The notes under the pieces are model-generated. The model was not told where the DNA came from. It ran no database searches and saw only the letters and a list, made by a program, of their open reading frames with translations. Shown here piece after piece: positions 39,845-60,435 of a stretch of DNA of 64,000 bases. Origin of the DNA: Firmicutes bacterium UBA3546. GTDB lineage: Bacteria; Bacillota; Clostridia; Tissierellales; Proteiniboraceae. The stretch is taken from the NCBI GenBank assembly GCA_002376545.1, contig DFOH01000041.1:48250-112249 (forward strand). The letters run 5' to 3'. The translations under genes were made by a program, and so were the position numbers. Every line of letters starts with the position of its first letter. Position 1 is the first letter of the stretch.

Positions 39845-41461
39845 TTACCAAACTGCTACCTGTCCGTCTGTCCTCGGTTCTGTAGCACCACATAACACAC
39901 CATCATCATTTCTCCAAATTATCTGACCTCTTCCAAAAGCTACACTGTTTGCCTTTACTACAATATCATGCCCTGCTCTCATTAGCTCTAAAGCCAGCCT
40001 ATTATCAAAGCTTTGCTCTACCTCTATAGTTTTACCTCCAACCCATTGCCATCTAGGTCTATCCAGTGCCTCTTGGGGGTTCATATTATAATCTATAGTA
40101 TTTATCATAACTTGAAGATGTGCCTGTGGCTGCATAAATCCTCCCATGATTCCAAAAGGTCCTACTGGCTTTCCATCCTTAGTTAAAAATCCTGGAATAA
40201 TTGTATGGTAAGGTTTCTTACAGCCTCCGATGCAATTATCTGATTCCTCGTCTAAATTGAAGTTGGCTCCTCTATTATGAAGTGAAATTCCTGTATTAGG
40301 AACTACTATTCCAGAGCCAAAACCCATATAGTTACTTTGTATGAATGAAACCATGTTTCCTTCTTCGTCAGCTGTACATAGATAAACTGTTCCTCCCTTA
40401 GAAGGCTGTCCCGCCTCAGGCAATATTGCCCTATCTGATATCAGCTTTCTTCTTTCCGCAGCGTATTCCTGAGAAAGCAATTCTTCTGTTTTTATTCTCA
40501 TTATTTTTGGATCAGCCACATATTTTTGTGCATCTACAAAGGCTAGCTTTAAAGCTTCTATTTGCAAGTGCGTACTGTTAAAGGAATCTCTTGAGCCTAG
40601 TTCCATTTCTTTTAATATATTTAATGCCATAAGTACAGTTATTCCATGACCATTTGGTGGTATTTCGTATATTTCATATCCCTTATAATTAGTGCTTATT
40701 GGCTCAACCCATTCTGGATAGAAGTCTGCTAAATCCTCTTTAGTAATATACCCGCCATATTTCTTAGAAAATGAATCGATTTTTTCTGCCAATTCTCCAC
40801 GATAGAAGCTCTCTGCCATAGTTTTTGCTATTTCTCTTAAGGTTCTTCCATGGTCTTTTAATGTGACATAGTCTCCAATCTTAGGACAATTCCCATTTGA
40901 TGCGAATGTATCAAACCATGTCTGAAATTCTTCTTTATTTTCTCTTTCCTTAGTATAGTTTCTAAAGGCTGCTGCCCATCCTGCTCCTACCCCTGGCTGA
41001 ATAGTAAAGCCTTCCTCTGCATATTTAATAGCAGGCTCTAGAACTTCCTCAAATGGAAGTTTTCCAAACTTTTTGGATAGCTCTGCCCAAGCAGCAGGTG
41101 CACCTGGTACATTAACTGGTATTAGACCATATTTAGGCATTTCTGTATGTCCTAATTCCTTTAATGCTTTTGCACTTATTGATTTAGGTGAAGGACCACT
41201 GCTATTTAAACCGTGAAGCTTATTTCCTGTCCATACTAGTGCAAAAGCATCTCCACCTATTCCATTGGCTGTAGGCTCCACAACTGTTAGGGTGGCGGCA
41301 GTTGCAATAGCTGCATCAATTGCATTGCCACCTTTTTTTAGTATCTCTAATCCTGCTTGTGCGGCTAATGGATTACCTGTGGCTACCATACCTCTTTTAC
41401 CATAAATTACGTTACGCTTTGATGGATAGCTATAAGTCAATGGATCGAATTTAAATCTCAT
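39845..41461 (-). CDS. ggt: Gamma-glutamyltranspeptidase family protein (no signal peptide)
   Basis: GGT-family sequence with a putative autoprocessing Thr in ...SKGGTVYL.... Confidence 0.7.
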   Translation of the reverse strand: MRFKFDPLTYSYPSKRNVIYGKRGMVATGNPLAAQAGLEILKKGGNAIDAAIATAATLTVVEPTANGIGGDAFALVWTGNKLHGLNSSGPSPKSISAKALKELGHTEMPKYGLIPVNVPGAPAAWAELSKKFGKLPFEEVLEPAIKYAEEGFTIQPGVGAGWAAAFRNYTKERENKEEFQTWFDTFASNGNCPKIGDYVTLKDHGRTLREIAKTMAESFYRGELAEKIDSFSKKYGGYITKEDLADFYPEWVEPISTNYKGYEIYEIPPNGHGITVLMALNILKEMELGSRDSFNSTHLQIEALKLAFVDAQKYVADPKIMRIKTEELLSQEYAAERRKLISDRAILPEAGQPSKGGTVYLCTADEEGNMVSFIQSNYMGFGSGIVVPNTGISLHNRGANFNLDEESDNCIGGCKKPYHTIIPGFLTKDGKPVGPFGIMGGFMQPQAHLQVMINTIDYNMNPQEALDRPRWQWVGGKTIEVEQSFDNRLALELMRAGHDIVVKANSVAFGRGQIIWRNDDGVLCGATEPRTDGQVAVW

Positions 41462-41699: not shown

Positions 41700-43100
41700 A
41701 CTAGTTTTGCTTTAACCAGCAGTTATTTTTACAAAACAGATTTTAATCTAATAGCATATTAATATTGAATTTCATTTTTGCTTCTACGATAGAAAATAGC
41801 CCATACAATTGATAAAGCCAAGGCTACAACTACTATTGTTAATGCTGTATTGTAACCCGCTGGATTGAATCTACCATCGGCTAGTGGTTCGTATAGGTCA
41901 ATAATCGCACCAATTCCTGATTGAATAACAGTAGACATAACGAATACTATCATATTATAAGTCGTCTGCACACGACCTGATAACTTTGCATCAAACATAG
42001 ATGAAAAAATTGGATATGTAAGTAATGAAAACGGTCCCAATATTACAAATATAGGCCATAATATATTACCATATTGAGGTAAGAGAATAATTAGCCCTAA
42101 AATTGCAGTATATATAGACATTGCAACAATTGTTATAGTAAATACTTTTGTACCAAAACGTGCTTTCAATACGTTAGCACATAATCCATTTATTAGATAG
42201 CCTACTGTAATGGCAAATGCACAAACAAACAGAAGATTTGGAACGGCATCTTTTGAGTAACCTGCAACATCACGATACCATGGTCCAATCCATAAAGAGT
42301 TCAGTGCTAGATAGACTGACTGACCCAATACAGCTACAGGAGCTAATCTCCAAAATCGTTTAGATATAGAGATATCTAATGTTCCTTTTAGCTGCTGTCC
42401 AATGCTTTCCCCTACATTTTTCTCGTCAGGATGACGTGGAGAAAAGTATAGCATAAACGCAACAAATAATGTAAGAAACCCTAATACAACGAACACACCT
42501 CTCCAGCTCATAAATCCTAATGCGGCATTGATTGGAGTAGTAGCAACCATTCCACCAACACCACCAATAAATGATAATAAACTATTGTAGATAGGTAACT
42601 TTTCCTTTGGAAGCCAATCCCCAAATGCCTTGTATGCAGCCATCATACAACCTGATACACCTAAACCCACTAAAGCCCTTCCAATAAACAAGAAGAATAT
42701 GTTTTGAGCTGATGCAAATACAAAACATCCAACAACCCCAAATATCATAAAACCTGCAAGTGTACGTCCAGAACCATATCTATCTAGGCATACTCCTAGC
42801 GGGATTTGCGCAAACGCGACACTTAAAAAATATGCACTTGTCATAATCCCAAGATCACTAGCACTCATACTAAATGTTTGAATGAATGTTGGTGATAAAA
42901 CACTATTAATTGTTCTCAAAAGAACTGACATAAAGAAAGCTAATGCAAAAGGAATAAATAATTTAAAAAAGAAGCTGACAGTTACCTCTTTTTTGTTGAG
43001 TGACACCTGAGCCATTGTGAAACCCCCTTAGCCTTTAATTTTGTTGAATCTATCAGGGAATCCGCTTACCTATTTGAAAGTTTCTTATATATATTTTCAT
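41700..43100. repeat. About 1.35-kb direct repeat, copy 1
   Basis: Covers the MFS gene plus about 60 bp of both flanks, and is about 90% identical in nucleotides to 45095-46490 (copy 2). Confidence 0.7.
41759..43015 (-). CDS. MFS transporter (copy 1)
   Basis: 418 aa, 12 TM, MFS family. About 88% identical in amino acids to the copy at 45154-46410. Confidence 0.75.
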   Translation of the reverse strand: MAQVSLNKKEVTVSFFFKLFIPFALAFFMSVLLRTINSVLSPTFIQTFSMSASDLGIMTSAYFLSVAFAQIPLGVCLDRYGSGRTLAGFMIFGVVGCFVFASAQNIFFLFIGRALVGLGVSGCMMAAYKAFGDWLPKEKLPIYNSLLSFIGGVGGMVATTPINAALGFMSWRGVFVVLGFLTLFVAFMLYFSPRHPDEKNVGESIGQQLKGTLDISISKRFWRLAPVAVLGQSVYLALNSLWIGPWYRDVAGYSKDAVPNLLFVCAFAITVGYLINGLCANVLKARFGTKVFTITIVAMSIYTAILGLIILLPQYGNILWPIFVILGPFSLLTYPIFSSMFDAKLSGRVQTTYNMIVFVMSTVIQSGIGAIIDLYEPLADGRFNPAGYNTALTIVVVALALSIVWAIFYRRSKNEIQY

Positions 43101-43699: not shown

Positions 43700-44950
43700 C
43701 TATGCTTGTAAAAAATCATATGCAGATAATGTATGTATCTGTGCAATTTTTACCATCTCATCAATAGAGACATGTTCGTTTGGTCCGCCTAAGCCGTATG
43801 GAGTTAACCCACAGTTTATACTTGGGACACCCTTTCTCAATCTATATATTCTAGCATCAGATGCACCTACACGGAATGTTACTACAACTTCCTCGCCAAG
43901 AACTTCTTCACTGCATGATTTAACAACTTTAAACAAAATATCATCTACATCAGACCAGTTTGCTTCGTATGAACGCATAACAGAATAAGATACATTATCT
44001 ATAGAGGATACTATTTCTTTAAGCTTGTCCTCTATCTGTTGTATGGTAACCCCAGCTGGAATTCTTATATCTGCCTCTGCCATTGCTGATGCAGGAACAA
44101 GATTTGGAGAAATTCCTCCTTTAATGGTGCCAAAGTTTACAGTTACTTTTTGCAAAATTTCCGTTTCACCTGGTCCTGCGCCTACCTCGGAAATTCTTGC
44201 ACCATCTAAAATTGCCCTTCTTACCTTTTCTGGAGCATTCACTTGTAATTTAGGAAGCTCTTCATTTATCATAGATATCGCCTTAATCAAGCTATTAATT
44301 GCACTGCTTCCTTTATGAAGATGTGCACCATGAGCTGATTTTCCAGTAGCTTCTAGCTTAATCCATAGTAGACCTTTTTGCCCAAATCGTAATGCATTAG
44401 GAGCACCTACGTCAGCACAAATCATTGCGTCTCCTGTAGTTTCTGGAACAGTAGCTAGTAAAAACTCTGTTCCTCTAGGTCCCATTGCTTCTTCATCTCC
44501 TGCAAGAGTAAGAATAATCTCACCATTCCATAAGTCTTTTCTTTCTGCTAATATTTTGGATGCAGTAATGAAACAAGCAATTCCACCTTTCATATCAGAA
44601 GAACCACGTCCATATATAAAATTATCCTTTACAATTCCAGACCAAGGGGATTCATCCCAGTCATCAGGATTTCCAACTGGGTAAGTATCTAGATGTCCAT
44701 TAAAGATTAATCTTTTACCTGGCTTGCCACTCTTTATTCTAGCAACAAGATTTCTTACAGGCTCTTCTTGTGTATAATAATTTAGTTCTATACCAGGAAT
44801 CTCCTTAAGAACATCATATACATATTCTGCAACCTCTATTGTGTTAGATGGCGGAGTTTCACTAGGAATCTGAACCATTTTGATACATAAATCTACCATG
44901 TTTTGTTTTTGCTTTAGAATTTCTTCGCATAATTCTTTTCTTAAGTCCAC
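43700..44950 (-). CDS. M20 family metallopeptidase/deacylase (ArgE/DapE-like)
   Basis: HLDTYP, GSSDMKGG and EEAMG motifs, 416 aa. Confidence 0.7.
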   Translation of the reverse strand: MDLRKELCEEILKQKQNMVDLCIKMVQIPSETPPSNTIEVAEYVYDVLKEIPGIELNYYTQEEPVRNLVARIKSGKPGKRLIFNGHLDTYPVGNPDDWDESPWSGIVKDNFIYGRGSSDMKGGIACFITASKILAERKDLWNGEIILTLAGDEEAMGPRGTEFLLATVPETTGDAMICADVGAPNALRFGQKGLLWIKLEATGKSAHGAHLHKGSSAINSLIKAISMINEELPKLQVNAPEKVRRAILDGARISEVGAGPGETEILQKVTVNFGTIKGGISPNLVPASAMAEADIRIPAGVTIQQIEDKLKEIVSSIDNVSYSVMRSYEANWSDVDDILFKVVKSCSEEVLGEEVVVTFRVGASDARIYRLRKGVPSINCGLTPYGLGGPNEHVSIDEMVKIAQIHTLSAYDFLQA

Positions 44951-45153: not shown

Positions 45154-46410
45154 TTAATATTGAATTTCATTTTTATTTCTACGATAGAAAATAGCCCATA
45201 CAATTGATAAAGCTAAAGATACAAATACTATTATTAACGCTGTTCTATAACCCATTGGATTAAATCTACCATCGGCTAGTGGTTCATATAGGTCAATAAT
45301 CGCACCAATTCCTGACTGAATAACAGTAGACATAATAAATACTAGCATATTATAAGTAGTCTGCACACGACCTGATAACTTTGCATCAAACATAGATGAG
45401 AAAATTGGGTATGTAAGTAGTGAAAACGGTCCCAATAGTACGAATGCAGGCCATAATATATTACCATATTGGGGTAAGAGAATAATTAGCCCTAAAATCG
45501 CAGTATATATGGACATTGCAACGATTGTCACAGAAAATACTTTTGTACCTAAACGTGCTTTCAATGCGTTAGCGCAAAATCCATTTATTAGATATCCTAC
45601 TGTAATGGCAAATGCACAGATAAATAGAAGATTTGGCACAGCATCTTTTGAGTAACCTGCAACATCGCGGTACCATGGCCCAATCCATAAAGAGTTCAAT
45701 GCTAGGTATACTGACTGACCCAATACGGCTACAGGAGCTAATCTCCAAAATCGTTTCGATATAGAGATATCCAATGTTCCTTTTAGCTGTTGTTTAATGC
45801 TTTCTCCTACATTTTTCTCGTTAGGATGACGTGGAGAAAAGTATAGCATAAACGCAACAAATAATGTAAGAAGACCTAATACAACGAACACTCCTCTCCA
45901 GCTCATAAATCCTAATGCAGCATTGATTGGAGTAGTAGCAACCATTCCACCAACACCACCAACAAATGATTCTAGGCTATTGTACATAGGTAGCTTTTCC
46001 TTTGGAAGCCAATCTCCAAATGCTTTATATGCAGCCATTAAACAACCCGATACACCTAAGCCAACTAAAGCCCTTCCAATAAACAAGAAAAATATGTTTT
46101 GAGCTGATGCAAACACTAGACATCCAATAACTGCAAATACCATAAAAATAGAAAGTGTACGTCCAGAACCATATCTATCTAGGCACACCCCTAATGGAAT
46201 CTGTGCAAATGCAAAACTTAAAAAATATGCACTTGTCATGATTCCAAGATCACTAGCACTCATATTAAATGTTTCAATAAATGTTGGTGACAAAACACTA
46301 TTAATTGTTCTCAGAAGACATGACATAAAGAAAGCTAATGCAAAAGGAATAAATAGTTTAAAAAAGAAGCTGACAGTTACCTCTTTTTTATTGAGTGTTG
46401 CTTGACTCAT
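45154..46410 (-). CDS. MFS transporter (copy 2)
   Basis: 418 aa, paralog of 41759-43015. Confidence 0.75.
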   Translation of the reverse strand: MSQATLNKKEVTVSFFFKLFIPFALAFFMSCLLRTINSVLSPTFIETFNMSASDLGIMTSAYFLSFAFAQIPLGVCLDRYGSGRTLSIFMVFAVIGCLVFASAQNIFFLFIGRALVGLGVSGCLMAAYKAFGDWLPKEKLPMYNSLESFVGGVGGMVATTPINAALGFMSWRGVFVVLGLLTLFVAFMLYFSPRHPNEKNVGESIKQQLKGTLDISISKRFWRLAPVAVLGQSVYLALNSLWIGPWYRDVAGYSKDAVPNLLFICAFAITVGYLINGFCANALKARLGTKVFSVTIVAMSIYTAILGLIILLPQYGNILWPAFVLLGPFSLLTYPIFSSMFDAKLSGRVQTTYNMLVFIMSTVIQSGIGAIIDLYEPLADGRFNPMGYRTALIIVFVSLALSIVWAIFYRRNKNEIQY

Positions 46411-47014: not shown

Positions 47015-47497
47015 ATGATTGAAAGGGGTATTAAAATTAATATGATAAATGGTCTTGATGAAATTGACAATAAGATTTTGCAGCTTCTTGCTGAAAATGC
47101 AAGGGCATCTTTTGTAGATATAGGAAAAGAAGTTAACCTGTCCCGAACTGCCGTAAAATTGAGAATCCAAGCTCTCGAAAGTAAAGGGATTATCGAAAAA
47201 TATAGTATTATTATTAATCCTGAAAAAGTAGGCAATACTTTAGCTGTCTTCTTTGATATTGAAGTTAACCCAATACACCTTAACGAAGTATGTGATATTT
47301 TAGTCGAAAATCCTTACATTATAAAAATGTACCAGATGACAGGCAATACCAGTTTACACATTCATGCAATGTTAGAGTCTAACGAACATTTGGAGTCATT
47401 TTTAAAAAATGTAATTTATGAACTGCCAGGAATAGTAAATGTAAGATGCAGTACAATTGTCTCAAGAATAAAAGATAGTAAGGAAATTAGAATATAA
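47015..47497 (+). CDS. Lrp/AsnC family transcriptional regulator
   Basis: HTH_AsnC N-terminus (LDEIDNKILQLLAENARAS) plus a RAM domain. The true start may be MINGLDE at 47042. Confidence 0.7.
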   Translation: MIERGIKINMINGLDEIDNKILQLLAENARASFVDIGKEVNLSRTAVKLRIQALESKGIIEKYSIIINPEKVGNTLAVFFDIEVNPIHLNEVCDILVENPYIIKMYQMTGNTSLHIHAMLESNEHLESFLKNVIYELPGIVNVRCSTIVSRIKDSKEIRI

Positions 47498-47521
47498 TAG
47501 CATTATTTTATACTTATTAAG

Positions 47522-47563
47522 AATGCCTCCCAAAATATAATCAACTATATTTTGGGAGGCATT
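47522..47563. terminator. Bidirectional rho-independent terminator
   Basis: aatgcctcccaaaatat...atattttgggaggcatt 17-bp stem between the convergent lrp and chrA genes. Confidence 0.7.
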
Positions 47564-47669
47564 TATTAAGTTCATTTTTATAGAACCTATTTTCAATTTA
47601 CCTGCTCCTTACCATCATAATCCTTCATAAAGATTATGATGGGCGTCTTCAATTGTTTTTAGACTACTG

Positions 47670-48194
47670 CTAATAAATAATATATCCTAAAATCCCTGCT
47701 ACCAATGTAAGTAGTATTGGGTGCATTTTATATTTATATGTTGCAAAGAAAGCCAATGCAAAAAATATAACGCTTTTATAATCTATAAATGTTTCTCTAT
47801 TGATTAACAGCATCATTGCTGATAATACAAGTCCTACTACTACTGGTCTAAGACCTACAAAGGCATTCTCTACATATTTATTATTCTTAAATTTAAAAAA
47901 GAAATTACATATTATAAGCATTATAATTATTGATGGCGCTGCAACTCCTAATGTTGCTAAAGCAGAGCCTAAAGCACTATTTGTAACTGTGTACCCAATA
48001 TATGTAGCACTGTTTATTGCAATAGGTCCAGGAGTAACCTGTGATATGGCAACTATATCTGTGAACTCACTGACACTAAGCCAATTGTTTACATCTACTA
48101 CCTCGGTTTGTATCAAGGGCAGCATAGCATATCCTCCACCAAAGCTAAAAAGTCCTATTTTGAAAAATGTAATGAAAAGTCTTAAATAAATCAT
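47670..48194 (-). CDS. chrA: Chromate transporter family protein (short-chain, second half)
   Basis: 174 aa, about 6 TM, ChrA-family. Confidence 0.65.
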   Translation of the reverse strand: MIYLRLFITFFKIGLFSFGGGYAMLPLIQTEVVDVNNWLSVSEFTDIVAISQVTPGPIAINSATYIGYTVTNSALGSALATLGVAAPSIIIMLIICNFFFKFKNNKYVENAFVGLRPVVVGLVLSAMMLLINRETFIDYKSVIFFALAFFATYKYKMHPILLTLVAGILGYIIY

Positions 48195-48736
48195 TATTTC
48201 TTACCTCCCTTTTTAGCCATGTACAAATTTCCTCCAATTACTGCTAAAATAATAAACAAAATAGGAGTAATTTTTAAGAAGGTAACACCTGCTGCAACTA
48301 CTACAGGTATAATAAAGGCCTTTCCTTTTAGCTTTGAGCTTTTAGATAAACTAATAACAGATGTTGCTATCAAAGCTACTACTGCTGGTCTTATAGCCTT
48401 AAATGCACTTTCTACTGCTTCTAAATCTTTAATTTCTCTAAAAAACATTGCAATAGCTAAAATAATTAGAAATGACGGCAGTATAGCTCCTAATGTAGTA
48501 AAAAAAGCACCCTTATACCTGTCCATTTTAAATCCCACAAATACTGCTGTATTTACAGCTATTGGACCCGGTGATGATTGAGCTAGTGCCAAGGTATCTA
48601 TAAATTCATCCTTTTCAATCCACTTTTTCTTATCTACAACCTCTGCCTCAATAAGTGGCACCATTGCATATCCTCCGCCTATTGTAAAAGCACCTATTTT
48701 GAAAAAAACTGAAAACATTTCTAAATACTTTTTCAT
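48194..48736 (-). CDS. chrA: Chromate transporter family protein (short-chain, first half)
   Basis: 180 aa with ChrA N-type motif GGGYAMVPLI. Its stop overlaps the start of the second half. Confidence 0.65.
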   Translation of the reverse strand: MKKYLEMFSVFFKIGAFTIGGGYAMVPLIEAEVVDKKKWIEKDEFIDTLALAQSSPGPIAVNTAVFVGFKMDRYKGAFFTTLGAILPSFLIILAIAMFFREIKDLEAVESAFKAIRPAVVALIATSVISLSKSSKLKGKAFIIPVVVAAGVTFLKITPILFIILAVIGGNLYMAKKGGKK

Positions 48737-48972: not shown

Positions 48973-49446
48973 TTAAAATTTACAATGCTCGTTTCTTATT
49001 GAGCTTACTTCATTTATTATATCATCAACATCTAGAACCATTTCCATCATACCAATTTGCTCATCATATACATCTACGTCAAATTCATCTTTAACTTCTG
49101 GCTCTACAACATGATATACTTTAAGTCCTAACTGGACTCCTGCTAATGGACCTGCAAAAGTTGGATCTCCTGCTGTAACTGTTTCAGCTGCTAAACCTGC
49201 AGCTTCACCTTCAGCAGCACCTAAAAGAACGATTATGTTCTCTGCACCGTGCTTCTCAGCTAAATCCTTAACTCTTTGTTGATTTTCTAGGTCCATAGCT
49301 CCTGCAGCCGTTCAGACAAAACACTCTGTAGATGCAAAAACTACTTCTGCGCTAGTTCCTTTAAGACATTCTTCTACCGCTGGAGCTGGTATACCGTCTC
49401 TATCGCCTATTATGATAACTTTTTTATCATCAAATAGTCTCATCAT
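48973..49446 (-). CDS. grdA: Glycine/betaine reductase selenoprotein A with in-frame UGA (Sec)
   Basis: Translation through TGA at 49312-49314 gives [59 protein letters not shown].... The track shows only the 107-aa portion after the UGA. Confidence 0.8.
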
Positions 49447-49619
49447 CACACTTCCTTTCTCAAGTTATATTATATTTGTGTTATTTAATACAGTTCAGAA
49501 AGAGATACGCTTCTCCTTCTGAATTAAGTCTTAAATTATCTTAATATTGAAGTTTTACCTTAAATATCGTTTATCAGTAGGTAAGAATCATCCTTGTCAC
49601 ATTTCTAGTTATCTAATGA

Positions 49620-50696
49620 TTAAAAAGCTTTATTTTTAATACTCTTAATTAGCATCAGCACTAATAATAATATACCTACATATCCATTAATTACGTAAAT
49701 AATATTAATTAATTTATCAAAAGGTACTTTTAATCCAATAAAAATCCCTACGACTGCTAAAACTATAGTAACTATTTTAAATTTACGGCTCTTCTCATCT
49801 GTAATTCTGGCCGAAGCAGTCCAAAGAAGTGGTACTGCTGTAGTATAAATTCCTGCTACAACTGTTATTGAAAACACTACAGCTATAGTTGGATGTATGT
49901 TGGCTGCTAATATTAATGATGGAATCATAGAGCCAGCAACTTGTTCAATGTTTGCCATAAGTCCTAAAGCTACAATTATAACAGCTATTGAAAAAGCTAT
50001 AGCGCCAAAAATTGCACCAAGAGCAGCTTCTTTTTTGCTATTTGCTGTTGCTCCCATAGAAGACACAAAAGATGCTAACCAAAGCATGCAGAAGCCAACA
50101 TAGGAACCTGCTGCAAACAACCAATTAGTCGATGCCTTCATTAAATTCAAAGTAGGTATAACCTCACTTGCTTTATTTAATCCTCCAGGATTTTTAATGA
50201 TAGCTGTCAACCCTAATAATATAGATAATACAACTATTGCTGGACCAATTTTCCCTATTACATCAACTATTTTACCTAGTCCAAAAATAACTGTTCCTCC
50301 TGCAAGTATACCCATGACTATACCACCAATAGAAACAGGTAACTCATATTGTTGATTTAGCGTAGCTCCAGCTCCTGCAATCATTACAATAAATGACATA
50401 TAAATAAATATCACCGAGAAATAGTCGTAAAACTTGCCTATGGTTTTACCACAATAATAGGTAAAAATATCACTACCTTTTGGAAACTTATGCTCCTGTC
50501 CTACTGTTATAAAGCTAACTCCAACATACAGAAACATAATAAACATAACTATGGCGCCTACAATACCCATATATCCATAAGATGCAAAATACTGCATTAT
50601 TTCTTGCCCTGTAGCAAATCCGGAACCTATTAAAAATGCTATGAATGCTCCTGCAAAAGAAATCACCTTTTTCATGCTTACTGTTTGATTACTCAT
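49620..50696 (-). CDS. Polytopic membrane protein, putative amino-acid permease (YkvI/APC-like)
   Basis: 358 aa, about 10-11 TM, embedded between grdB and grdA. Confidence 0.45.
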   Translation of the reverse strand: MSNQTVSMKKVISFAGAFIAFLIGSGFATGQEIMQYFASYGYMGIVGAIVMFIMFLYVGVSFITVGQEHKFPKGSDIFTYYCGKTIGKFYDYFSVIFIYMSFIVMIAGAGATLNQQYELPVSIGGIVMGILAGGTVIFGLGKIVDVIGKIGPAIVVLSILLGLTAIIKNPGGLNKASEVIPTLNLMKASTNWLFAAGSYVGFCMLWLASFVSSMGATANSKKEAALGAIFGAIAFSIAVIIVALGLMANIEQVAGSMIPSLILAANIHPTIAVVFSITVVAGIYTTAVPLLWTASARITDEKSRKFKIVTIVLAVVGIFIGLKVPFDKLINIIYVINGYVGILLLVLMLIKSIKNKAF

Positions 50697-50763
50697 AAGT
50701 ATCCACCCCTATCTAGAATAAGTCGAGCTGTTCCCATTCTGATTGCAATTTTTAGTTATTGCA

Positions 50764-50789
50764 TTTGAACCCCCTCTCGGGAGTTCAAA
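50764..50789 (-). promoter_or_regulatory. GC-rich hairpin with GAGA tetraloop in grdB-permease intergenic region
   Basis: Minus-strand TTTGAACTCCC-GAGA-GGGGGTTCAAA (11-bp stem, one mismatch), with no U-tract. Confidence 0.4.
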
Positions 50790-50808
50790 CGCAAGGATGC
50801 TCATGCTT

Positions 50809-52116
50809 CTATTCAAATTGAGTTACTTCAGTGATTTCAGTTGTCAAAGCACCTAATGCTTTCTTTACTAAATTACGTCTTAATGCCAGCTCATCCTCCG
50901 GTGTAAGGCTTGGATTTCCAACTGGGTATGGTATTGCTATAGTTGGTACTATTCTGTTTGCTCCTACTGATTCAGAAATTGTAGTAATTGTTGCCATATG
51001 AACTATTGGAATACCATATCTTTCAATTTCTTTTACCATCGTTGCACCGCAACGTGTACAGGTGCCTCAGGTTGATGTTAAAATAACTCCATCTACTCCG
51101 GCTTCTTTTAGTTCCTTTCCAATTTCTTTTCCAAACTTAACTGAATTTCCTACTGATGTACCTGTTCCAGTAGTTGTGTAGAAGTAATTAAATACTTTTC
51201 CTATGACTCCTTCTTTTTCGTATTGCTTTAATAAATCAAGTGGAGCTACTCTATCAGGCACTTCATTTGCATATACTGGGTCAAATCCACCATGGATAGT
51301 GCAATATTCGCCCTTAAGCTCATCTAGATTTTCTACATCATATTTTCCCCATTTTTGAGCACTAGCTGATTGTATTCTATCAGGGTTTCCTAATGGTACC
51401 ATACCACCACTAGTAACTAAAGCTATAGTTGCCTTACTTAGCTCCTTTATAGCAGGAGCTGGGTCTACCATGTCAAATACAGGCATTGGAAGCTCTGTTT
51501 CAAATTCCTGATTATTTAATCTTGCTAATAGCATTTCTACAGCTCTTTGAGAACCTCTTTTTTCTGTAAATACTGTCAGTCTCTTGCCTTGAGGTATATA
51601 GCCTTCTTCCTGTGGAAGTCCTAATTCTTCTTTATTGAGTACCTTCTTCACTATTTTTGCAATAGCATCTAATGCTTTGCGCATACTTGCTGCTGAATCA
51701 GATACACTTACAACTATTGCTTTATCCTTACAAACATCTACCCCCGGATTTTCAACATACATACCAGTTACTACAGGAATATTTAATTTATCTACAACTT
51801 CCTCTGCTATTTCTCCACATGCCATACCGTATCTACCTGCATTAAAGGCTGGCCCTGCAACTAATATATCTGGATTAACCTTTTTAACTACATTAAATAT
51901 ATAATCTAATGCTTCTTCCTTGTTTTCATTGAAATAATTGTCACCGCAAATAATTGTGCCTACAACTTTACCTACATCCTTCAACAATCCATTAAGCCCC
52001 ATTGCTGGCCCTACTGTTTCCTCTTTGTATTCAGGAGCCATACCTGCCTTGTCTTCTCCTCCTACTTGTCCAAAGAATTGATTAACATAATATAAAACTC
52101 TGTATTTATCTGTCAT
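50809..52116 (-). CDS. grdB: Glycine reductase component B selenoprotein (gamma subunit) with in-frame UGA (Sec)
   Basis: ...GVDGVILTST-U-GTCTRCGATMVKEIERYGIP.... The UGA is at 51067-51069. The track splits this gene into ORFs of 349 aa and 76 aa. Confidence 0.8.
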
Positions 52117-52140
52117 GTTTGTACCTCCTTTCAGTTACGA

Positions 52141-53436
52141 TTAGTATAATCTTGCTGTACAGTTGTGATAGCCTATTTCAGAAGTAGAACCAATAACTGC
52201 ATTTAATTCACACATTAATGTTCCATCTTCTAGCAAGGCTCCATCCCAGCCTCCTGCTAAAGTCGATATGGCTTCAGGATTTCCGATAACTCTATCAGCA
52301 GGTGGAAGAGTCACTACATGGCTTACATTGCCTCCCGATACTACTGCTATTGCTTCTTTAGCTGTATCTGCTAGTGGCTGAGACATTCCATCTCTGCCTG
52401 AACATTCATCAGTAATTAGTACAGTTTTTATTCCTGCATTTTCTAATCTCTTACAAATCATTAGTAAATCTGAGTCAGGATTTCCATATCCTTCTTCTGA
52501 TACTATAACACCGTCTGCACCTAACATTTTGCATAGCTTAGCTGTATAATCACAGGTTCTGAATTTACCTTCTAGTGTAGTAAGCTCTGGAGTCAATATT
52601 ACTCCTAAGAAATTTAACGTTTTCCCATGTTGTGAATATAAATCTAGTATAGCTGCATTATTTTGATGTTGATATGTTGTAATCTTATCACATGCTGCAA
52701 CACAGTTACCGCTGATTACAGCTCCATCTAGTTCTTCATTTGGATGTAATAGAGTTGGTAATATTTTTTGACTATTTACTCCATATATATATCCATCATG
52801 AAGTAATCCTTGAGAAATTAACATTTCTACATATAGTACCTTTGGTAAATTTGGATGTTTTGAAATCTCTTGTGCCATACTTCCTATTTCATAGGTTAAT
52901 ACTTCATCAGGCTCTACTTCTCTTCCTGCTTCACCTACAAGCTCAGTAGTTCTTAGCCCTGCTGCTCTAACTACAGCCTCATGAGTATGTGGAGCAAGCC
53001 CTTCAACTGGTGTAATATCTACAACTAAATTATAGGTTTTTGAAAATGGAGTCCATTTAGCTCCTTCATCCCACATGTCAATTACACCTTCTTGGAATCC
53101 CACTATATCACCTATAGTAACAATGGCTGCACCGTATAAAACATTTACTTTACCTTCTCCTAATTGTGCCATTTTTGATGTTACTCCAGGAAAACCATTA
53201 CCTTCACCTTCAATCTTAACTCTTGGCTCAATAACGTCTTTTACTGGAATTATTCTAACCTTCTCTCCAGGTCTTGCAATGTCTAATTTAATCTCTTTAA
53301 TTCTTTCATCTTCCATAAGCTTTTCAATTATGTCTTCTTTTCTTACTGTTAAAACACCATCTTTTACAGCAGTTTCATTTCCAAACTGAATGTCTTTAAT
53401 ATGAATTCTTCTAAGTTCTAATTTCAAAAAAGTCAC
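52141..53436 (-). CDS. grdE: Glycine reductase component B proprotein (alpha/beta subunits)
   Basis: 431-aa GrdE-like sequence directly upstream of grdB. Confidence 0.7.
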   Translation of the reverse strand: MTFLKLELRRIHIKDIQFGNETAVKDGVLTVRKEDIIEKLMEDERIKEIKLDIARPGEKVRIIPVKDVIEPRVKIEGEGNGFPGVTSKMAQLGEGKVNVLYGAAIVTIGDIVGFQEGVIDMWDEGAKWTPFSKTYNLVVDITPVEGLAPHTHEAVVRAAGLRTTELVGEAGREVEPDEVLTYEIGSMAQEISKHPNLPKVLYVEMLISQGLLHDGYIYGVNSQKILPTLLHPNEELDGAVISGNCVAACDKITTYQHQNNAAILDLYSQHGKTLNFLGVILTPELTTLEGKFRTCDYTAKLCKMLGADGVIVSEEGYGNPDSDLLMICKRLENAGIKTVLITDECSGRDGMSQPLADTAKEAIAVVSGGNVSHVVTLPPADRVIGNPEAISTLAGGWDGALLEDGTLMCELNAVIGSTSEIGYHNCTARLY

Positions 53437-53465
53437 CTCCAGATTATTTAAATAAAAAATATGAA

Positions 53466-53831
53466 TTATAATATCTGTGCTTCCTGTAATGCTGATTGTA
53501 AAAGTTTAAAGTCAATCATTGCATAGTCATCAGCATTTTTCTGGTCTGGATTTCTCACCTCCATATTTTTCTTATAGGTTGAAATGCTATTTTCTAATAT
53601 TTCTATATGAAAATCATTAATAGCCTTTTTCTTTTCTCCAACTATTACAGAGCGATATGGAGAATACAACATCCTTATACTAGCACCTAGTGGAGAACTA
53701 ATTAATTCATAACCATCATGTAATAAATCTCTTACTTTAACTAATACATCCTCATAAGTACCTTTAATGAAATAAATATTGTCTAAGTCTTCTTTTACCA
53801 TTGGATTATTGGTGACAATTATATTTTTCAA
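53466..53831 (-). CDS. grdX: GrdX-like small protein of glycine reductase operons
   Basis: 121 aa, first gene of the grd cluster. Confidence 0.5.
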   Translation of the reverse strand: MKNIIVTNNPMVKEDLDNIYFIKGTYEDVLVKVRDLLHDGYELISSPLGASIRMLYSPYRSVIVGEKKKAINDFHIEILENSISTYKKNMEVRNPDQKNADDYAMIDFKLLQSALQEAQIL

Positions 53832-54076
53832 GTGCTCCCACCTTTCATAAAAGATTTTAGGTTTTTAATAGATTGAGTAGTATGTCTAATGAGTGATTAA
53901 CAGAATATATAACAGATGAAATTTAATATAGTTTTTCTGATTTGTTTTTTGTTGTATTTTAATAGTATCTTTTATGTATTTCTTAATTTTATTATACATT
54001 AACTTATAAAATCTTTCAAGTGCTTTAAGGATTTTTTTGTTACTATTTTATCAATGCATTAAAAAAAAGTATAAAA

Positions 54077-54176: not shown

Positions 54177-54809
54177 TTATAACAATTCTTGCTTTATTTT
54201 CTCTACAAAATCATCAATATGCTCTCTTGCATACTTTTCTGCATTAGCTGTATCTTTCTCTTTAATAGCTTTTAATACTTTACTTAATGTATTGGTAAAT
54301 AGCTCCATTGAATCAAAAAATTGCTCTGAATAATGCCACAATCTTTCAGTATGAATATGCAGACTAGATAGGATTTCAGACAAGCAAGGATTGCCACAGC
54401 TTTGAGATATTATTTTATGAAATCTTTCATCATCATCTATGGCTTTTTGATAATCGCTTTCTATATCATAGCTATTCAATCTTTCTACTATAGCCTCAAG
54501 CTCTTGTAAATTTTCCTTGCTAATTCTTTCAACTGCTAACTTTGTAGCAAATGGATCCATTTCTCTAGTTACTTCAAATACAGATTTTATATATTTAAAA
54601 TCTAAGGGAGTAACCTGTGCTCCAAATCTAGGTATTATATTAAGTAATTTATCATCACTTAGCTGCTGAAAAACCTTTCTTATGGGTGTTCTGCTTAAAC
54701 TAAATTCATTTGCAACATCTTCCTCATTTAATACTTCCCCAGGACTATATTCTAGCTCTATGATTCTTCGTTTTAATAAATCATATATTTCATCTGATTG
54801 AACTTTCTT
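54177..54809 (-). CDS. GntR-family (FadR/FCD subfamily) transcriptional regulator
   Basis: N-terminal wHTH (EEDVANEFSLSRTPIRKVFQQL) plus an FCD-like C-terminal domain. Probable GTG start after AAGGGG; the track N-terminus extends to 54869. Confidence 0.65.
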   Translation of the reverse strand, partial: KKVQSDEIYDLLKRRIIELEYSPGEVLNEEDVANEFSLSRTPIRKVFQQLSDDKLLNIIPRFGAQVTPLDFKYIKSVFEVTREMDPFATKLAVERISKENLQELEAIVERLNSYDIESDYQKAIDDDERFHKIISQSCGNPCLSEILSSLHIHTERLWHYSEQFFDSMELFTNTLSKVLKAIKEKDTANAEKYAREHIDDFVEKIKQELL

Positions 54810-55029
54810 AGTCACTATATTCAAACCCCTTATCGTCAATTTAGTAAAGATAATATCTAAATTAGACACATTATCCTGTATTTTAAATATATCATCAATT
54901 TATCTATTAGTAAAGTACAATAGGTATTCCTTATGTATTTATAATGTTCTATTGTATTTTTGAATGCAGGTAAATATATTATCTAAAGATTATATATTTT
55001 TTGGCGGCTTCATTTTTTCTACTAATTCC

Positions 55030-56331
55030 TCATTCACCTCTCGAAATCACATCTTTTATTAATTCATCAATTAGCAGCTCTTGGTACCCTGCTCTTTTTT
55101 CTCGTTTAATAAATTGTGATAAATGAATCAATGAACTATCCCGCAGTCTATCTAATTTTCTTATTCTGTTTTCTTCAATATGCTCTTCTGACATTACTTT
55201 TTCATAATCATCTATAGAAAACCTCCACAGCTCCAAGCTTTCTCCATATCTTCTTTTAAGCTTATCTGCAATGATTAGACCCTCAGGGTCAAAATCTCCT
55301 GAATAATATATTTTAGCATTTTCTTTTACCAATAAATCTAGAAGAACTAATGAAGCCAGCTTTACATTACCATAGGTACAAATTAAGGCAGATTTTGTTT
55401 CATATGTTCTGTATAGAACTTCACTAAAAACTGTTGGATTCTCAAATACATATACTACACCCTTAGGCGCTATGGCTCTATTTAGTAAGCTAATATTCCA
55501 TAGAGATACTTGTAATGGCTCTCCCTGATTGTAGAAGCCTTGCCAGCCTTGATGAATCCTTTGTTCTGTATATGCTAAAAGACCACTTAATGTAGTATAG
55601 TTGGATATCTCATCTCTTATTAAGCCAGCCTTATATAATATTTCTGCTCTTTCCTCTGCATTTTCTGGATAATTTTCCTTTAGAAAATATACTATTCCAT
55701 ACATGAGCAGAATACCACTATCTGTATTATCATCAAATTCATGGGGATTTTTGCTGATTTGCGAGGAGAAAACAGCCAGTCTTTCCTTTCTATTTGTTAG
55801 GTATGGCAAGTTATCTAAAGCATTGGACACTAATATTAAGCCTTTTCTCAGCTTGTCTTTGTCAGAATCATATTTTCTTAATAATAGGTTGTAGGGATTA
55901 ATCCTATTTTCTAATATATCCTCAAGCCAGTTGTGTCCCCGCTCCCCCCTTATCTGATGTAAAACATCAGCATAAAACTGCCTCTTCTCTTCTTCATAAA
56001 TGCTTTGGCTTTCTTTTTTAGTTATTATATCCCTACTAAAATATTCACTTAGTATATCAACTAAATCTAATCCTTTAAATGGAGTATCCTCAAGGGCATT
56101 TTGAAATTTTTCAACTTTTATAGCTACTGAATCCTTATAATAGTTTTCCTTTAAGTATCCAGATATTGCTTCCTTTTCTGCTTGAGATAGCTTTTCAAGC
56201 TTTATTGTACCTCCAATTTTTCCTAAGGATATATATTTATCTCTGATTTTTAAGAGAACCCTGTTAAACCCAGGGTTACTCTTAAAATATTTACAGCATT
56301 GTTGCAGCAGCTTCTTCTCCATAAGCTTCAC
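55030..56331 (-). CDS. jetD: Wadjet JetD (TIGR02679/DUF2220-like, Toprim fold)
   Basis: VYVFENPTVF...YYSGDFDPEGL: a Toprim-like acidic Glu plus a DxD motif. It overlaps the jetC end. Confidence 0.7.
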   Translation of the reverse strand: MKLMEKKLLQQCCKYFKSNPGFNRVLLKIRDKYISLGKIGGTIKLEKLSQAEKEAISGYLKENYYKDSVAIKVEKFQNALEDTPFKGLDLVDILSEYFSRDIITKKESQSIYEEEKRQFYADVLHQIRGERGHNWLEDILENRINPYNLLLRKYDSDKDKLRKGLILVSNALDNLPYLTNRKERLAVFSSQISKNPHEFDDNTDSGILLMYGIVYFLKENYPENAEERAEILYKAGLIRDEISNYTTLSGLLAYTEQRIHQGWQGFYNQGEPLQVSLWNISLLNRAIAPKGVVYVFENPTVFSEVLYRTYETKSALICTYGNVKLASLVLLDLLVKENAKIYYSGDFDPEGLIIADKLKRRYGESLELWRFSIDDYEKVMSEEHIEENRIRKLDRLRDSSLIHLSQFIKREKRAGYQELLIDELIKDVISRGE

Positions 56332-59300
56332 CTTCGTTTAAAATTAATTCTTTAAATTGTCCATTCCATTTGTATCTAAGAACTGTAACAAAGTTTGCAT
56401 TATTTGGTCTAAGAAGCTCGCATATGGCAAGTGAAGGTACCGTGTCATAGTCTCCCCACAATATCTGGGAATTTATGATATAATTTAGTCCTAATTCATT
56501 TAGCAACCTAAACATATCTCTTATATTATTCTCATCCACACCTGCAAAAGCTTCATCTAAGGAAATTATTCTAGGGCAATCTTTTCTGCCCCCTTCGTAT
56601 TTTGAATATACAGCCGAAAATAAAGGAACATACATTGCCATGGCTTTTTCTCCGCCACTAAATTTATAAAATGCATTGTTTGTAAGCTCTTTTTTATTTT
56701 CGTTAGTTTTTTTATAAAACAGCCTGAATTCAAACCATTTTCTGTAATCTAGTACTTCCTTCATTATAGAGTGGAAGGTAGTACTCGTTTCTTTTTCTTC
56801 TATTTTTCTTCTAGCTTCTTCTATTTTAGATCTAAAATGAGCTGACAGCTTGTTAATTTCGTTTTCAGTTAATAGATTCCCATCCTTCTTTAATAGCTGA
56901 ACCAGTTCTTTAGTATCTAATTGTTCCTCTGTTTCTGCGCTCTTGCTTTTCCAGCTTAAACTAAATGATAGTCCACTTGATGTATTCATAGATTCCATGA
57001 GAGAATTCATCTTTTTTACCCATTCTTCACTGCTGTATATTCTTCCTCTTATTTTTTTACTAATATTTTTAGCCAGTATATCTTCAAATAGCTGCCTATC
57101 ACTTTCTCTGAGTAGCTTTTCATTTTCAGCTATTCCTTCTTTTATGTGTTCCAGCAAACTGTAAAAGCTCACATAGGTACCTCTAATTCTTCCCATAAGC
57201 TCTAATCTTTTATGCTTTAGATAAGCTTCCTTAATTTCATCCTCTAACTCTTCAATATTTTTCTCAAAAATATATTCTATTTTAAGATTATACTCTGCCA
57301 TAAACTGTCGGTTTTCATGGTATTTAGTTTGTAAATTTCCCATATAATCATCTCTTGATTTTCCTTGCTTTTCAAGATACTTCAATTCTCCATATATATT
57401 ATCAGCAGCTTTTTCAATATCTGCATTTTCCTCTGCTTTAAATACATACTGGAGCATATATTCTTCTTTAAAGCCTTCTTTTAAAATCTCGTTTAAGCTT
57501 TCATTAATGCAAATTTCTCTACCAGTGTTCTCCAGCTTTTCAGAAATAATTTTAAGCTCAGAAAACATACTAGTCTTTTTCTCTATGTTTTCTTTAATCA
57601 TTTTGGGTAAATTGTTTAATTCTTCTATACAATTACTAATTTCTTTTTCTATATCCTCAAAGCCTGATATTTGGAGCTGCTCATATAAGCTGTTTGTCTT
57701 TTCTTGGCTTTGCTTAAATCTCAGCTCTATCTTGGATAAATCATATCTTATTTCTTCTATGTCTCCATCTATTTCTTCTTTTCTATCTTCAGCATTTTTC
57801 TCTAAACTTACCACTTGTAAAAGCATTAGATGCTCTCTTTCTAAATCGCTTAAGACCTCCTTGTATGTGGTCGCATCCTCCTCAGCATCCATGAAGGCTT
57901 TAAGATTTTTCCCTATTTCCATATTATAAGTAAGGGAATGTACTTTTTGTCTCACTTCCTTAAGGATTTTGTACAGTCTATCTACTATTTCCTCTTTAAG
58001 CTCTACATCCTTTAACGAATTATCATATTCGAATTCTGATGTCTTCAACTCCCCTATAGCAGTTTCTAAATCTTTTTTATCTGGAAAAGAGCTGTATTCC
58101 TTGCTCAAAACTAATAATCTATCCTTTATTCCACTAATGCCTAATTGTAATTCTTTGATTCTTTCTTCAATTTCTTTCTTTTCCTCTGTAAGCCTTAGTA
58201 TAATTTCTTCTCTATAGGTTTTTCTAGCAGATGAGCCTATGAACTTAGGAGTGTAGGCTTTGCTTGTCTTTCCTTTTATCAATCCTATTCCATATTCCCC
58301 ATGCTCATTTATATAGGTGGTTTCTTCTTTTTCATCTACTAGTATAGTTCTTAGTACATCTTCAACTTCCTCTCTGCTTAGACCCTCTACCAAAGAATTT
58401 TCTGATTTTAACTTTAATGATAACTCATGGGTGAAAATTTTTGGCGATGCAAACAAATACTTATCCGCCATATCCTTATCCATTTCAAATACTCTTTTTC
58501 TGTATTTGTGAGGAATTATAAGAGCATCTAGTATTCCCATGTCTAACAGTGCTTCCTCGTATTTGCCCTTTTCTTCCTCTTTTAATAATTCTTCCTTAAA
58601 GTCTACAGCTAGATAAAAAGGCATAAATGGAATATTTTCCCCTGTTAATCTCTTACGATTTAGCAGTACCTTTTCTGTTCTCTCTGGTTCTGGATCTTTT
58701 TTGTTTTTCCAATCTAATATTTTCTGCTCTTTCTCATCTCTTTGTTCCTTATACTGTTTCTCTGCTGAGTTCAATTTATATAGTTTTTGATTAAGGTCAC
58801 CCTCAAATCTGTTATGCTCTGTTCTAATGTCTCCTATAATATCGTCAAAGGTGGTCTTTTCTCCATATAGATTTACCTTTCTCCTTACTTCTACTAGAAT
58901 CTCTTCAGAAGGCTTAAGCTCTTTGTTGTTTTTTTGCCATATATGCATGTTCTCTATGAATTCTTCTTTTATTTCAGAAAAAAGAAGACTTACCCTCTCT
59001 AGGTTTTTTCCCCTGTCTTCCTTTGCTTTTTTACTTCTCTCTAGCTCTATAAGTCCATTATCGTATTCAGCATTTTTGCTTCCTCTTCCTCTAAAGCTTT
59101 TCTTGCATTTGTTATTCTTTCGCTATAAGCTCTGACTTGAGACTTTACATATGAGAAATCATAGGGTTCATACATTTTTTTCAATATCTCATCTCTCATA
59201 AATACTTCTTCATGAAACTTAAATGCCTCTGCCAGCTCGTCCATTTCTCGTAACTTTTCTTTTATCTCATTTGCCTTGCATGTTTTTTCTTCTTCTCTTT

Positions 59301-60435
59301 TTTTAATTTCCTGGTAAAGCTCTCTTTCCTTATCTAGCTTTATATTTAGAGAATCATTTTTTTGATTTTTTTCTTTACTAAGCTCCTTTAAACCTTCTTC
59401 TAATTTAGCTAATTCTACCTTGATGTTGTAGCTATCATGCTTTTCCAGTTCTCTTTTCTTTTCTTCTAGGGTTTTTTGTCTTATTTCAAGGTCCGTTATT
59501 CTTTTATCTGCCTCATCATGTTGTTTCTGGAATTCTTCTTTTTTAGTGGTAAGTGCGTTTTTCTCCTTTTTAATATTTCTTAAAATTTCATTTGATTTAG
59601 TAAAATCCTTAGATTTTTCAAGCAATACAAATCTATTATATTGATCATAGGATTTTTCAAGCTGTTCTGCTGCTTTCAAGCTAGTTTTCAAGTCCTCAAG
59701 CTTCACCTTTATATTATCCATATTCTCTATGGCCTCTGACATTGGTCTTAAGTCCTCATCAGATAAAGGCTGTAAAGAATTCTCCATTATTTCATAGACT
59801 ACTGTTGGTTTAAAATCCTTTGAAAGCTTAGGGGTTCTGAGCTGAATAAGCAGCTTTATAAGCTCATCATAATCATCTATATTATCAAATCCAAATAAAT
59901 ATCTATTAACTAAGGACATATATTGCTTCTGGTCATCTGCTACTTCTCCGCCGTTTTCTATTCTATTTTTAAGTTCTTTTTTGCTTAAGGGTACTTTTCC
60001 CCCTACATTTTTATATAGGAAAAGCTCTTTTCCTATTCTCCTCCCGTCGCTTATGACAAAGCCCCAGGAATTTAAGCCTTTCCCTCTTTTAGCATTAAGT
60101 CCCATCCCAATAGTTATATACTTTTCACTGTCCTGCTTTTTAAATTCCATGTATATATAGCCTGTGCTTTCATCTTTTCCTGTGTCTTCTTCTCCTAGGA
60201 GATAGTTCTCCATTTTTCTAGCTCTAGAGCCAAAGGGGTCTAGTCTTTCTGGGCTTTTGTTTCCATCTAGTAAAAGAGGTATAAAGCTCTGCATTGTTAC
60301 AGATTTTCCTGAACCATTTGAGCCTCTTAGTAGTAGCTTTCCGTACAAAAAATCGAACTCTTCTTCATCGTAATACCAGAAGTTTATGAGTCCTGCTCTG
60401 TTCATCATCCATTTATCATTATACATCTTCTTCAC
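56291..60435 (-). pseudogene. jetC: Wadjet JetC SMC-like ATPase, interrupted by a +/-1 frameshift near the T5/A5 run at ~59073-59077
   Basis: The N-terminal ORF (59047-60435) has Walker A LLLRGSNGSGKSV plus coiled coil. The C-terminal ORF (56291-58948) has coiled coil, ABC signature FSGGEKA and Walker B IISLDEAFAGVD. The downstream frame stays open up to 59122, so both frames are open across 59047-59122. Confidence 0.7.

Follow-up and report, generated by a model that had tools for sequence, protein, structure and literature searches.

Known reductase modules and the locus of Firmicutes bacterium UBA3546

Glycine-family reductases supply anaerobes with ATP from glycine, sarcosine or betaine. 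In the canonical glycine operon, of the type found in Acetoanaerobium sticklandii and Clostridioides difficile (loci L012 and L090 of our set), grdA lies between grdE and grdB, trxBA and grdCD are present, and there is neither a permease gene nor a GntR gene. The sarcosine module on megaplasmid CP007453 of Peptoclostridium acidaminophilum has the order grdX, proprotein gene (grdG), selenoprotein B gene (grdF), YkvI; it includes no grdA, grdC or grdD and its regulators are a sensor kinase and a sigma-54 activator. The betaine reductase module grdI-grdH of the same organism also has a regulator of its own, relies on a BCCT transporter and borrows protein C and thioredoxin. We analysed a related module in a 64,000-nucleotide stretch from Firmicutes bacterium UBA3546 (assembly GCA_002376545.1, contig DFOH01000041.1, positions 48,250 to 112,249 of the forward strand), hereafter referred to as the window. 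The module lies wholly on the minus strand, in the order GntR/FCD regulator, grdX, grdE-type gene, grdB-type gene, permease, grdA. The evidence presented below makes it probable that this is a sarcosine-specific protein B module equipped with an importer, a repressor and an extra GrdA, the genes for protein C and thioredoxin being located elsewhere.

The window module and the P. acidaminophilum sarcosine module share their gene order and the lack of grdC and grdD. Both specify a GrdB-type protein with a UxxCxxC motif, and common to both are the TTGTGT and I/V-HGG motifs and the alanine two positions beyond the pyruvoyl cysteine; the gene after grdF, annotated "hypothetical protein", specifies a permease 73% identical to that of the window. 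They differ in their regulators, in the presence of grdA in the window, and in the sequences of protein B: GrdG and GrdF are 53% identical to their window counterparts, GrdG being nearer to canonical GrdE (67%). With the canonical glycine operon the module shares the protein families, the selenocysteine (Sec) positions, the SGNC motif and the context of the grdB selenocysteine insertion sequence (SECIS), but it has IHGG and GTGT where the canonical proteins have AHGG and GNGT, and GrdE and GrdB identities are in the 54-58% range. The principle of the betaine module applies here as well, with a transporter of a different family (YkvI instead of BCCT).

Clusters with a fuller gene complement are also known. 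In Dehalobacterium formicoaceticum, two MttB genes, a BCCT gene, a GntR/FCD gene and a YkvI gene are accompanied by a sensor kinase, a sigma-54 regulator, trxB, trxA, grdA, grdC, grdD, grdX and grdE' (the prime denotes genes of the type found in the window). The window GntR protein is 61% identical to the one encoded beside YkvI in this organism, and identities are 72% for YkvI and 73% for GrdE'. The cluster of a relative of Dehalobacterium, "Ca. Formimonas warabiya" DCMF (trxB-trxA-grdA-grdC-grdD-grdX-grdG-grdF), has a gene order like that of Dehalobacterium, and proteomic and physiological evidence points to sarcosine cleavage. Both clusters are complete, with trxBA, grdA and grdCD, and lie beside MttB genes and BCCT carriers, whereas the window has the B module, the permease and grdA. 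The name sarcosine reductase is already in use for proteins of this clade in Sporomusa and DCMF, on the basis of indirect evidence. Mildly new here are the conserved GntR - grdX - grdE' - grdB' - YkvI regulon and the prediction of a substrate for the YkvI family.

A glycine-reductase-type selenoprotein gene cluster

The cluster is genuine and had been read correctly, and its selenoprotein genes belong to the glycine-reductase family. The grdX gene (53466..53831), found ahead of the grdE-type gene at nearly every related locus, matched NF038093 with 124 bits (cut-off 40). The grdE-type gene (52141..53436), encoding the proprotein of the protein B alpha and beta subunits, scored 644 bits on PF09338. 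The grdB-type gene (50809..52116) specifies a selenoprotein B of 435 residues with Sec350 in the UxxCxxC motif (TIGR01918, 654 bits; PF07355, 539 bits). It is followed by the gene for a polytopic YkvI-family membrane protein of 358 residues (49620..50696), assigned from the names of close relatives and a fold model, and by grdA (48973..49449), encoding selenoprotein A with its CxxU motif (NF040748, 276 bits, cut-off 130; PF04723, 270 bits). Translation of grdA could start at 49449, 49446 or 49443. Upstream of grdX lies the gene for a GntR-family regulator with an FCD effector domain (54177..54869; PF00392, 52 bits; PF07729, 79.5 bits).

The order grdX-grdE-grdB-(permease)-grdA and the upstream GntR gene had been read from the sequence in an earlier, model-made annotation (the original prediction), and coordinates and profile matches bear out both. 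It had also noted that grdC, grdD and trxAB were not nearby. A profile scan of 50 open reading frames (ORFs) of at least 145 codons spread over the 64-kb window likewise found no grdC, grdD, trxA, trxB, selA, selB or selD, and a tRNA scan of the whole window returned no tRNA, hence no tRNA-Sec. The suggestion that the cluster is a substrate-specific module coupled to uptake is supported by the recurrence of the GntR-grdX-grdE-grdB(-YkvI) layout in many genera. It can be narrowed: protein B belongs to a separate clade whose contexts point to sarcosine, not to the canonical glycine enzyme.

Protein B of the window belongs to a separate clade

A scan of one genome per species yielded 80 loci with a GrdE-type protein 74-88% identical to that of the window. 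The hosts are Tissierellia, Clostridium ultunense and its relatives, Hathewaya, Acidaminobacter, Gudongella, Propionigenium, Syntrophomonas, Syntrophaceticus, Desulfosporosinus and Sporomusa. Among organisms with a name, Proteiniborus sp. DW1 comes nearest, with a near-identical locus (GrdE 95% and YkvI permease 90% identical). The GrdE-type protein of the window is 54% identical to canonical GrdE, and the clade as a whole is roughly equidistant (52-58%) from the glycine and the sarcosine enzymes.

None of the substrate-specific models for protein B recognized the window proteins. On TIGR01917, the model for glycine GrdB, the window protein scored 601.3 bits for a cut-off of 602.2, a borderline miss since the score depends on writing Sec as Cys. 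The clade GrdBs tested against this model (those of the window, S. schinkii and Tissierella creatinophila) fell between 580 and 601 bits, all below the cut-off. Scores were 554.7 for the sarcosine GrdG model NF040793 (cut-off 780), 623 for the sarcosine GrdF model NF040794 (cut-off 800) and 574 for the betaine GrdH model NF040795 (cut-off 775). Sequence motifs gave a comparable picture. A glycine-specific GrdB motif has been defined as AHGGxD[QTAP]...RV[IL]PxD...TxGNxTxV (Nobu et al. 2022, PMC9751293), and the sarcosine GrdF motif reads IHGGYDR...TTGTGT. The window protein, with TIHGGFDP and TTGTGTSV, departs from the former at three positions (IHGG, RVAP, TTGTGT) and agrees with part of the latter (IHGGFDP, TTGTGT). 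All 73 intact GrdBs of the clade carry [I/V/T]HGG and TTGTGT.

Clostridiaceae bacterium 35-E11 has a complete canonical operon (grdX-trxB-trxA-grdE-grdA-grdB-grdC-grdD), the GrdB of which reaches 799.8 bits on TIGR01917, directly upstream of a GntR-grdX-grdE'-grdB'-YkvI-trxA-grdA' cluster. Together, this decisive tandem, the profile scores and the identities show that the window carries a separate, well-conserved protein B lineage that coexists with the glycine enzyme. Since the GrdF and GrdG scores lie below the cut-offs and identities are 53%, the window proteins are not members of the P. acidaminophilum lineage, though they probably work like it. By the NCBI models, the module belongs to neither the glycine, the sarcosine nor the betaine lineage.

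These data bear directly on the idea that the clade is a divergent glycine-specific isoenzyme of protein B, paired with a permease for glycine and serving, for instance, when glycine concentrations differ. The near miss on TIGR01917 would fit this idea, as would the label "glycine reductase" that some sources give to close relatives, the small-neutral-amino-acid carriers among the LeuT-fold relatives of the permease, and the loci of Syntrophaceticus, Syntrophomonas and Desulfosporosinus in which the clade provides the sole protein B beside grdA-grdC-grdD. We nonetheless judge it unlikely: the clade coexists with, and adjoins, a full canonical operon in one genome; the invariant residues of the glycine enzyme (AHGG, GNGT) are replaced by those of the sarcosine-specific GrdF; and, as detailed below, its neighbours make sarcosine rather than glycine and the same permease accompanies the characterized sarcosine enzyme.

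Residues and gene neighbours point to sarcosine

Residues that set the clade apart are partly shared with the sarcosine enzyme. Twenty GrdB positions separate the clade from three canonical sequences. At four of them, characterized GrdF does not have the canonical residue, and at three of these four (V51, L293 and T318) its residue is that of the clade; it also shares with the clade, against the three canonical sequences, the I/V at the AHGG site. In GrdE, five clade-specific positions are shared with GrdG. One of them is Ala247, two residues after Cys245, the predicted pyruvoyl-forming cleavage site (codon 52702..52704; SGN|CVAACDK). The SGNC motif at this site is conserved with canonical GrdE and with GrdG, and self-cleavage at Asn244|Cys245 would be expected from the behaviour of the family.

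A second line of evidence comes from gene neighbours. At least 8 clade loci, from at least 5 genera, have two further genes within about 10 kb of the grd genes. One encodes a D-hydantoinase (TIGR02033, 466 bits), the other an isochorismatase-family protein for which the best match of solved structure is N-carbamoylsarcosine amidohydrolase (1NBA, E 1e-62). The isochorismatase-family gene (the N-carbamoylsarcosine amidohydrolase homologue) occurs alone at three more loci. The hosts of the amidohydrolase loci are the C. ultunense group, Tissierella, other Tissierellaceae, Peptostreptococcaceae, Syntrophaceticus and Syntrophomonas. In most of these loci, the amidohydrolase and hydantoinase genes are found together with a sigma-54 activator. 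The two enzymes correspond to the last two steps from creatinine to sarcosine, as noted for T. creatinophila (PMC5364220). The set of loci considered here comprises L004, L001, L005, L010, L015, L031, L047, L049, L060, L065 and L073; in L004, the trio of sigma-54/PAS activator, N-carbamoylsarcosine amidohydrolase homologue and D-hydantoinase occupies positions 12969-16915, and the amidohydrolase homologue is 80-95% identical across genera. Next to the clade grd genes, the trio has the appearance of an anaerobic route from 1-methylhydantoin to sarcosine that is linked to the reductase.

In Sporomusa, Desulfosporosinus and Dehalobacterium, the clade genes are found beside genes for MttB-family methyltransferases and corrinoid proteins. 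Such methyltransferases and corrinoid proteins demethylate betaine towards sarcosine. On glycine betaine, strain DCMF induces its "sarcosine reductase" cluster about 2^7.6-fold (PMC9768040). Cultures of this strain form 0.95 mol of monomethylamine per mol of betaine and turn sarcosine and H2 into acetate and monomethylamine (PMC8163858), and the DCMF proteins were grouped by the authors with the "sarcosine reductase" genes of Sporomusa (PMC6778437).

Large upstream ORFs in Gudongella and Tissierella had been considered as possible methylhydantoinase genes; they proved to be dnaE, pfkA and pyk and are irrelevant. A second, distant GrdX-like gene (32-37% identical) lies upstream of dnaE-pfkA-pyk in both genera (L048 1906-2292, L009 91-477 and comparable loci), at a great distance from reductase genes. 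Thermacetogenium has no grd genes, and its paper is irrelevant here.

Misses on all three NCBI substrate models, together with the equal distance (52-58%) from the glycine and sarcosine enzymes, could also be read as the mark of a fourth class of reductase acting on some other derivative of glycine, for instance N,N-dimethylglycine, creatine or a further N-substituted glycine. The MttB-rich contexts do involve dimethylglycine, and Tissierella species that bear the clade grow on creatinine or creatine. This seems very unlikely to us: N-carbamoylsarcosine amidase yields sarcosine itself, strain DCMF makes monomethylamine and not dimethylamine or methylguanidine, and the very high conservation of GrdE (74-88%) over diverse physiologies fits a common metabolite. 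A broader formulation, for which we see only a small chance, would make the clade either a second, independently evolved N-methylglycine reductase lineage or a reductase for an unrecognized glycine derivative, with its conserved YkvI partner as the first protein of that family to which a substrate can be assigned; the family of LeuT-fold transporters would then import sarcosine (small N-alkyl amino acids). The most novel variant of this formulation is a fourth substrate specificity within the glycine reductase family.

The permease is a predicted sarcosine importer

Relatives of the permease are named "YkvI family membrane protein" in databases. The sequence gave no Pfam or NCBIfam match, a PDB sequence search found no solved relative for either GrdE or the permease, and no published function for the YkvI family turned up in a literature search. 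The AlphaFold model (predicted local distance difference test 88, pTM 0.87) has a LeuT/APC fold. It matched 57 PDB entries at E <=0.001, with template modelling (TM) scores of 0.6-0.68; these include BasC, AgcS, AdiC, ApcT, Nramp, BetP and CHT1, that is, LeuT-fold transporters of the amino-acid, Nramp and BetP types. As modelled, the permease is thus a LeuT-fold secondary transporter of the APC superfamily.

Besides P. acidaminophilum, Sedimentibacter has a GrdG/GrdF pair followed by YkvI; this YkvI protein is 75% identical to the window's and the GrdG 80% identical to that of P. acidaminophilum. No YkvI gene follows any of the three canonical operons examined. On the strength of this gene context, the permease is predicted to import sarcosine. 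In the aerobe Virgibacillus necropolis (L081 8001-10603), a 71%-identical YkvI gene is followed by one for an oxidase of the monomeric sarcosine / N-methyltryptophan oxidase family, a hint that transport of N-methyl amino acids by this YkvI subgroup extends beyond the anaerobes.

Several points weigh against assigning the module to sarcosine. The assignment is contextual throughout, and the window itself holds no sarcosine-producing enzyme. The glycine GrdB equivalog was missed by under one bit, with a score that hangs on the U-to-C substitution, and the two sarcosine models were missed as well. The place of the DCMF proteins in the clade is suggested by synteny with Dehalobacterium and by the tree of the authors of that work. 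Furthermore, YkvI occurs within 2 kb after grdB' in only 28 of the 65 clade loci with enough downstream sequence, and its contexts in Bacillus cihuensis, Oceanobacillus zhaokaii, O. polygoni and a Pseudomonas plasmid are uninformative. With these points taken into account, a sarcosine-specific protein B module is still the reading that we favour.

Selenocysteine codons and recoding signals

The original prediction had stated that two selenoprotein genes were split by the ORF track, with read-through of UGA at 49312-49314 in grdA and at 51067-51069 in grdB, and this is exactly what the sequence contains. The GrdA frame joins ORFs 49449..49312 (45 codons) and 49296..48973 (107 codons) through TGA 49314..49312 within the motif CFVU (CxxU). 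The GrdB-type frame joins ORFs 52116..51067 (349 codons) and 51039..50809 (76 codons) through TGA 51069..51067; read-through gives ...ILTST-U-GTCTRCGATM..., placing U350-GT-C-TR-C in the UxxCxxC motif. Both products match the family profiles. TGA occupies the homologous site in 75 of 75 GrdB-type relatives and the CxxU motif in 24 of 24 related grdA genes, and Cys, the presence of which in orthologues had been named as part of a possible refutation, is found in none of either group. The grdA reading frame stays conserved downstream of the UGA.

A SECIS structure had been expected immediately 3' of each UGA. For grdB, this expectation was confirmed. The 38 nt directly following the UGA (51029..51066) match the Rfam family SECIS_4 (RF01990) with 64.8 bits (gathering threshold 38, E 3.5e-13), and the core is the hairpin CGUUGC-GGU-GCAACG. 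Over 75 loci, third-codon-position entropy falls to 0.18-0.24 bit at codons +3, +5, +6 and +8 (TGT, CGT, TGC, GCA) and is 0.70 bit at the GGU loop codon +7; for comparison, it is 1.6-1.9 bit at the four codons before the UGA and the first one after it. Such low entropy at synonymous sites reflects selection on the RNA itself.

For grdA, the stretch cited as an example, ACGGCUGCAGGAGCUAUGGACC, is present in the sequence, but a SECIS structure in it found no support. There was no Rfam match after the UGA, even at E of 10 or less. Folding was no better than that of shuffled sequences (z +0.8 to +1.0 in the window, mean z 0.03 over 24 relatives), RNAalifold on 21 grdA sequences gave a consensus of just -1.86 kcal/mol, and neither constraint at synonymous positions nor covariation was detected downstream of the UGA. 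A GCN-GCNGG-NGC mini-stem of 2-3 bp was rejected, being forced by the Ala-Ala-Gly-Ala codons and keeping its third pair in only 11 of 21 sequences. The grdA recoding signal is either minimal or was missed by the methods used. Both UGAs are predicted to be decoded as Sec, the one in grdB by way of the SECIS_4 hairpin and the one in grdA by homology, since no SECIS could be detected there.

Were the UGAs true stops, the cluster would be a decaying remnant made of non-functional genes. The absence of protein C, thioredoxin and sel genes from the 64 kb and the undetectable grdA SECIS would fit this reading. This is highly improbable, however: both frames stay open and highly conserved past the UGA, the grdB SECIS is intact, the modular layout without grdC and grdD is widespread and conserved, with a near-identical locus in Proteiniborus sp. 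DW1, and characterized organisms likewise hold substrate-specific B modules apart from grdCD.

Regulation and intercistronic hairpins

Of the 63 related loci with enough sequence, 40 have a GntR orthologue no more than 1.5 kb upstream of grdX, and the GntR/FCD protein is a probable repressor of the module. The spacer between GntR and grdX contains a sigma-A-type promoter-like site, TTGAAA-17-TATAAT (53991..54019, minus strand), which, as a pattern, is the best consensus match of the region (11/12). Just downstream of the −10 motif, motif comparison revealed two AAATACA repeats (53975..53981 and 53953..53959, minus strand) as a candidate operator. The 9-mer TTGAAATAC, part of the motif ATACTATTGAAATACA, is found in 17 of 33 orthologous GntR-grdX spacers, and the tandem form ATTGAAATACA is frequent in those spacers, overlapping the −35 motif and the spacer of the promoter. 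The canonical FCD/GntR operator pattern T.GT(N3-5)AC.A is almost absent from the GntR-grdX spacers. The AAATACA-type repeats are a plausible operator, to which the GntR repressor may bind.

Two strong hairpins separate the distal genes. The first, right after the grdB' stop codon (50761..50792, minus strand), has a 16-bp stem and no U-tract; the grdB'-permease spacer folds with -38.3 kcal/mol (z -4.66). The second, between the permease gene and grdA (49494..49523, minus strand), has a 12-bp stem (z -3.56), again with no U-tract. Tested as repeat elements, each proved unique in the window. Stem-loops are predicted in 27 of 27 related grdB'-ykvI spacers, most of them starting within about 30 nt of the stop codon; their longest helices span 6-30 bp and their sequences are unrelated. 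The hairpin after grdB' is probably a partial terminator or an mRNA-stabilizing stem.

Neighbouring genes

The GntR gene is immediately preceded, on the minus strand, by a four-gene operon of the Wadjet/JetABCD type, matching TIGR02677/02678/02680/02679 (55030-63063). Its large SMC-like TIGR02680 gene is split into 59047..60435 (model positions 1-412) and 56291..58948 (model positions 538-1355), with a frame change near 59050-59120; it could be a frameshifted pseudogene or reflect a sequencing error. Just downstream of grdA (47015-48736), a split ChrA-type chromate transporter pair (48736..48194 and 48194..47670) neighbours a divergent AsnC/Lrp-type regulator whose best match is ChrS (165 bits, below cut-off). 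Further on (39845-46410), two paralogous MFS transporter genes (41759..43015 and 45154..46410) flank a gene for an M20 ArgE/DapE-type deacylase (43700..44950), with a gamma-glutamyltransferase gene (39845..41461) adjoining them; this region may be an island for the utilization of peptides or N-acyl-amino acids. On the minus strand at 7178-7615, there is a gene for a C-GCAxxG-C-C family protein in the Cys form, with no in-frame TGA; the family has selenoprotein members.

Proposed mechanism and significance

These data can be accommodated in a tentative scheme. The GntR/FCD protein would repress the promoter at 54019..53991 until an effector appears, and the YkvI-type LeuT-fold permease, as its gene context suggests, would import sarcosine. 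The GrdE-type proprotein, which has the required motif, would cleave itself at Asn244|Cys245 to yield the pyruvoyl group that binds the amine of the substrate, the chemistry being that of the family. By the same analogy, Sec350 of the GrdB-type subunit would attack the alpha-carbon, releasing methylamine and leaving a carboxymethyl-selenoether, and the carboxymethyl group would move to the Sec residue of GrdA (CxxU). Protein C (GrdC/GrdD), thioredoxin and thioredoxin reductase, encoded outside the 64-kb window, would then produce acetyl phosphate and return GrdA to its reduced form; acetate kinase would presumably use the acetyl phosphate to make ATP.

For the window itself the result is an ordinary one: a pair of selenoprotein genes split by ORF callers had been correctly recognized. 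The wider interest lies in the clade. In guts, sludge and sediments, the release of methylamine from creatinine, creatine and betaine is governed by glycine-family reductases. The only label that annotation pipelines give to this widespread clade is "glycine/sarcosine/betaine reductase component B", and published filters based on glycine-versus-sarcosine motifs would place it in neither category. If the clade and its YkvI partner were assigned to sarcosine, metabolic reconstructions of Tissierellia, syntrophic acetate oxidizers and acetogens would become sharper and, if the assignment is true, the YkvI family would acquire its first function.

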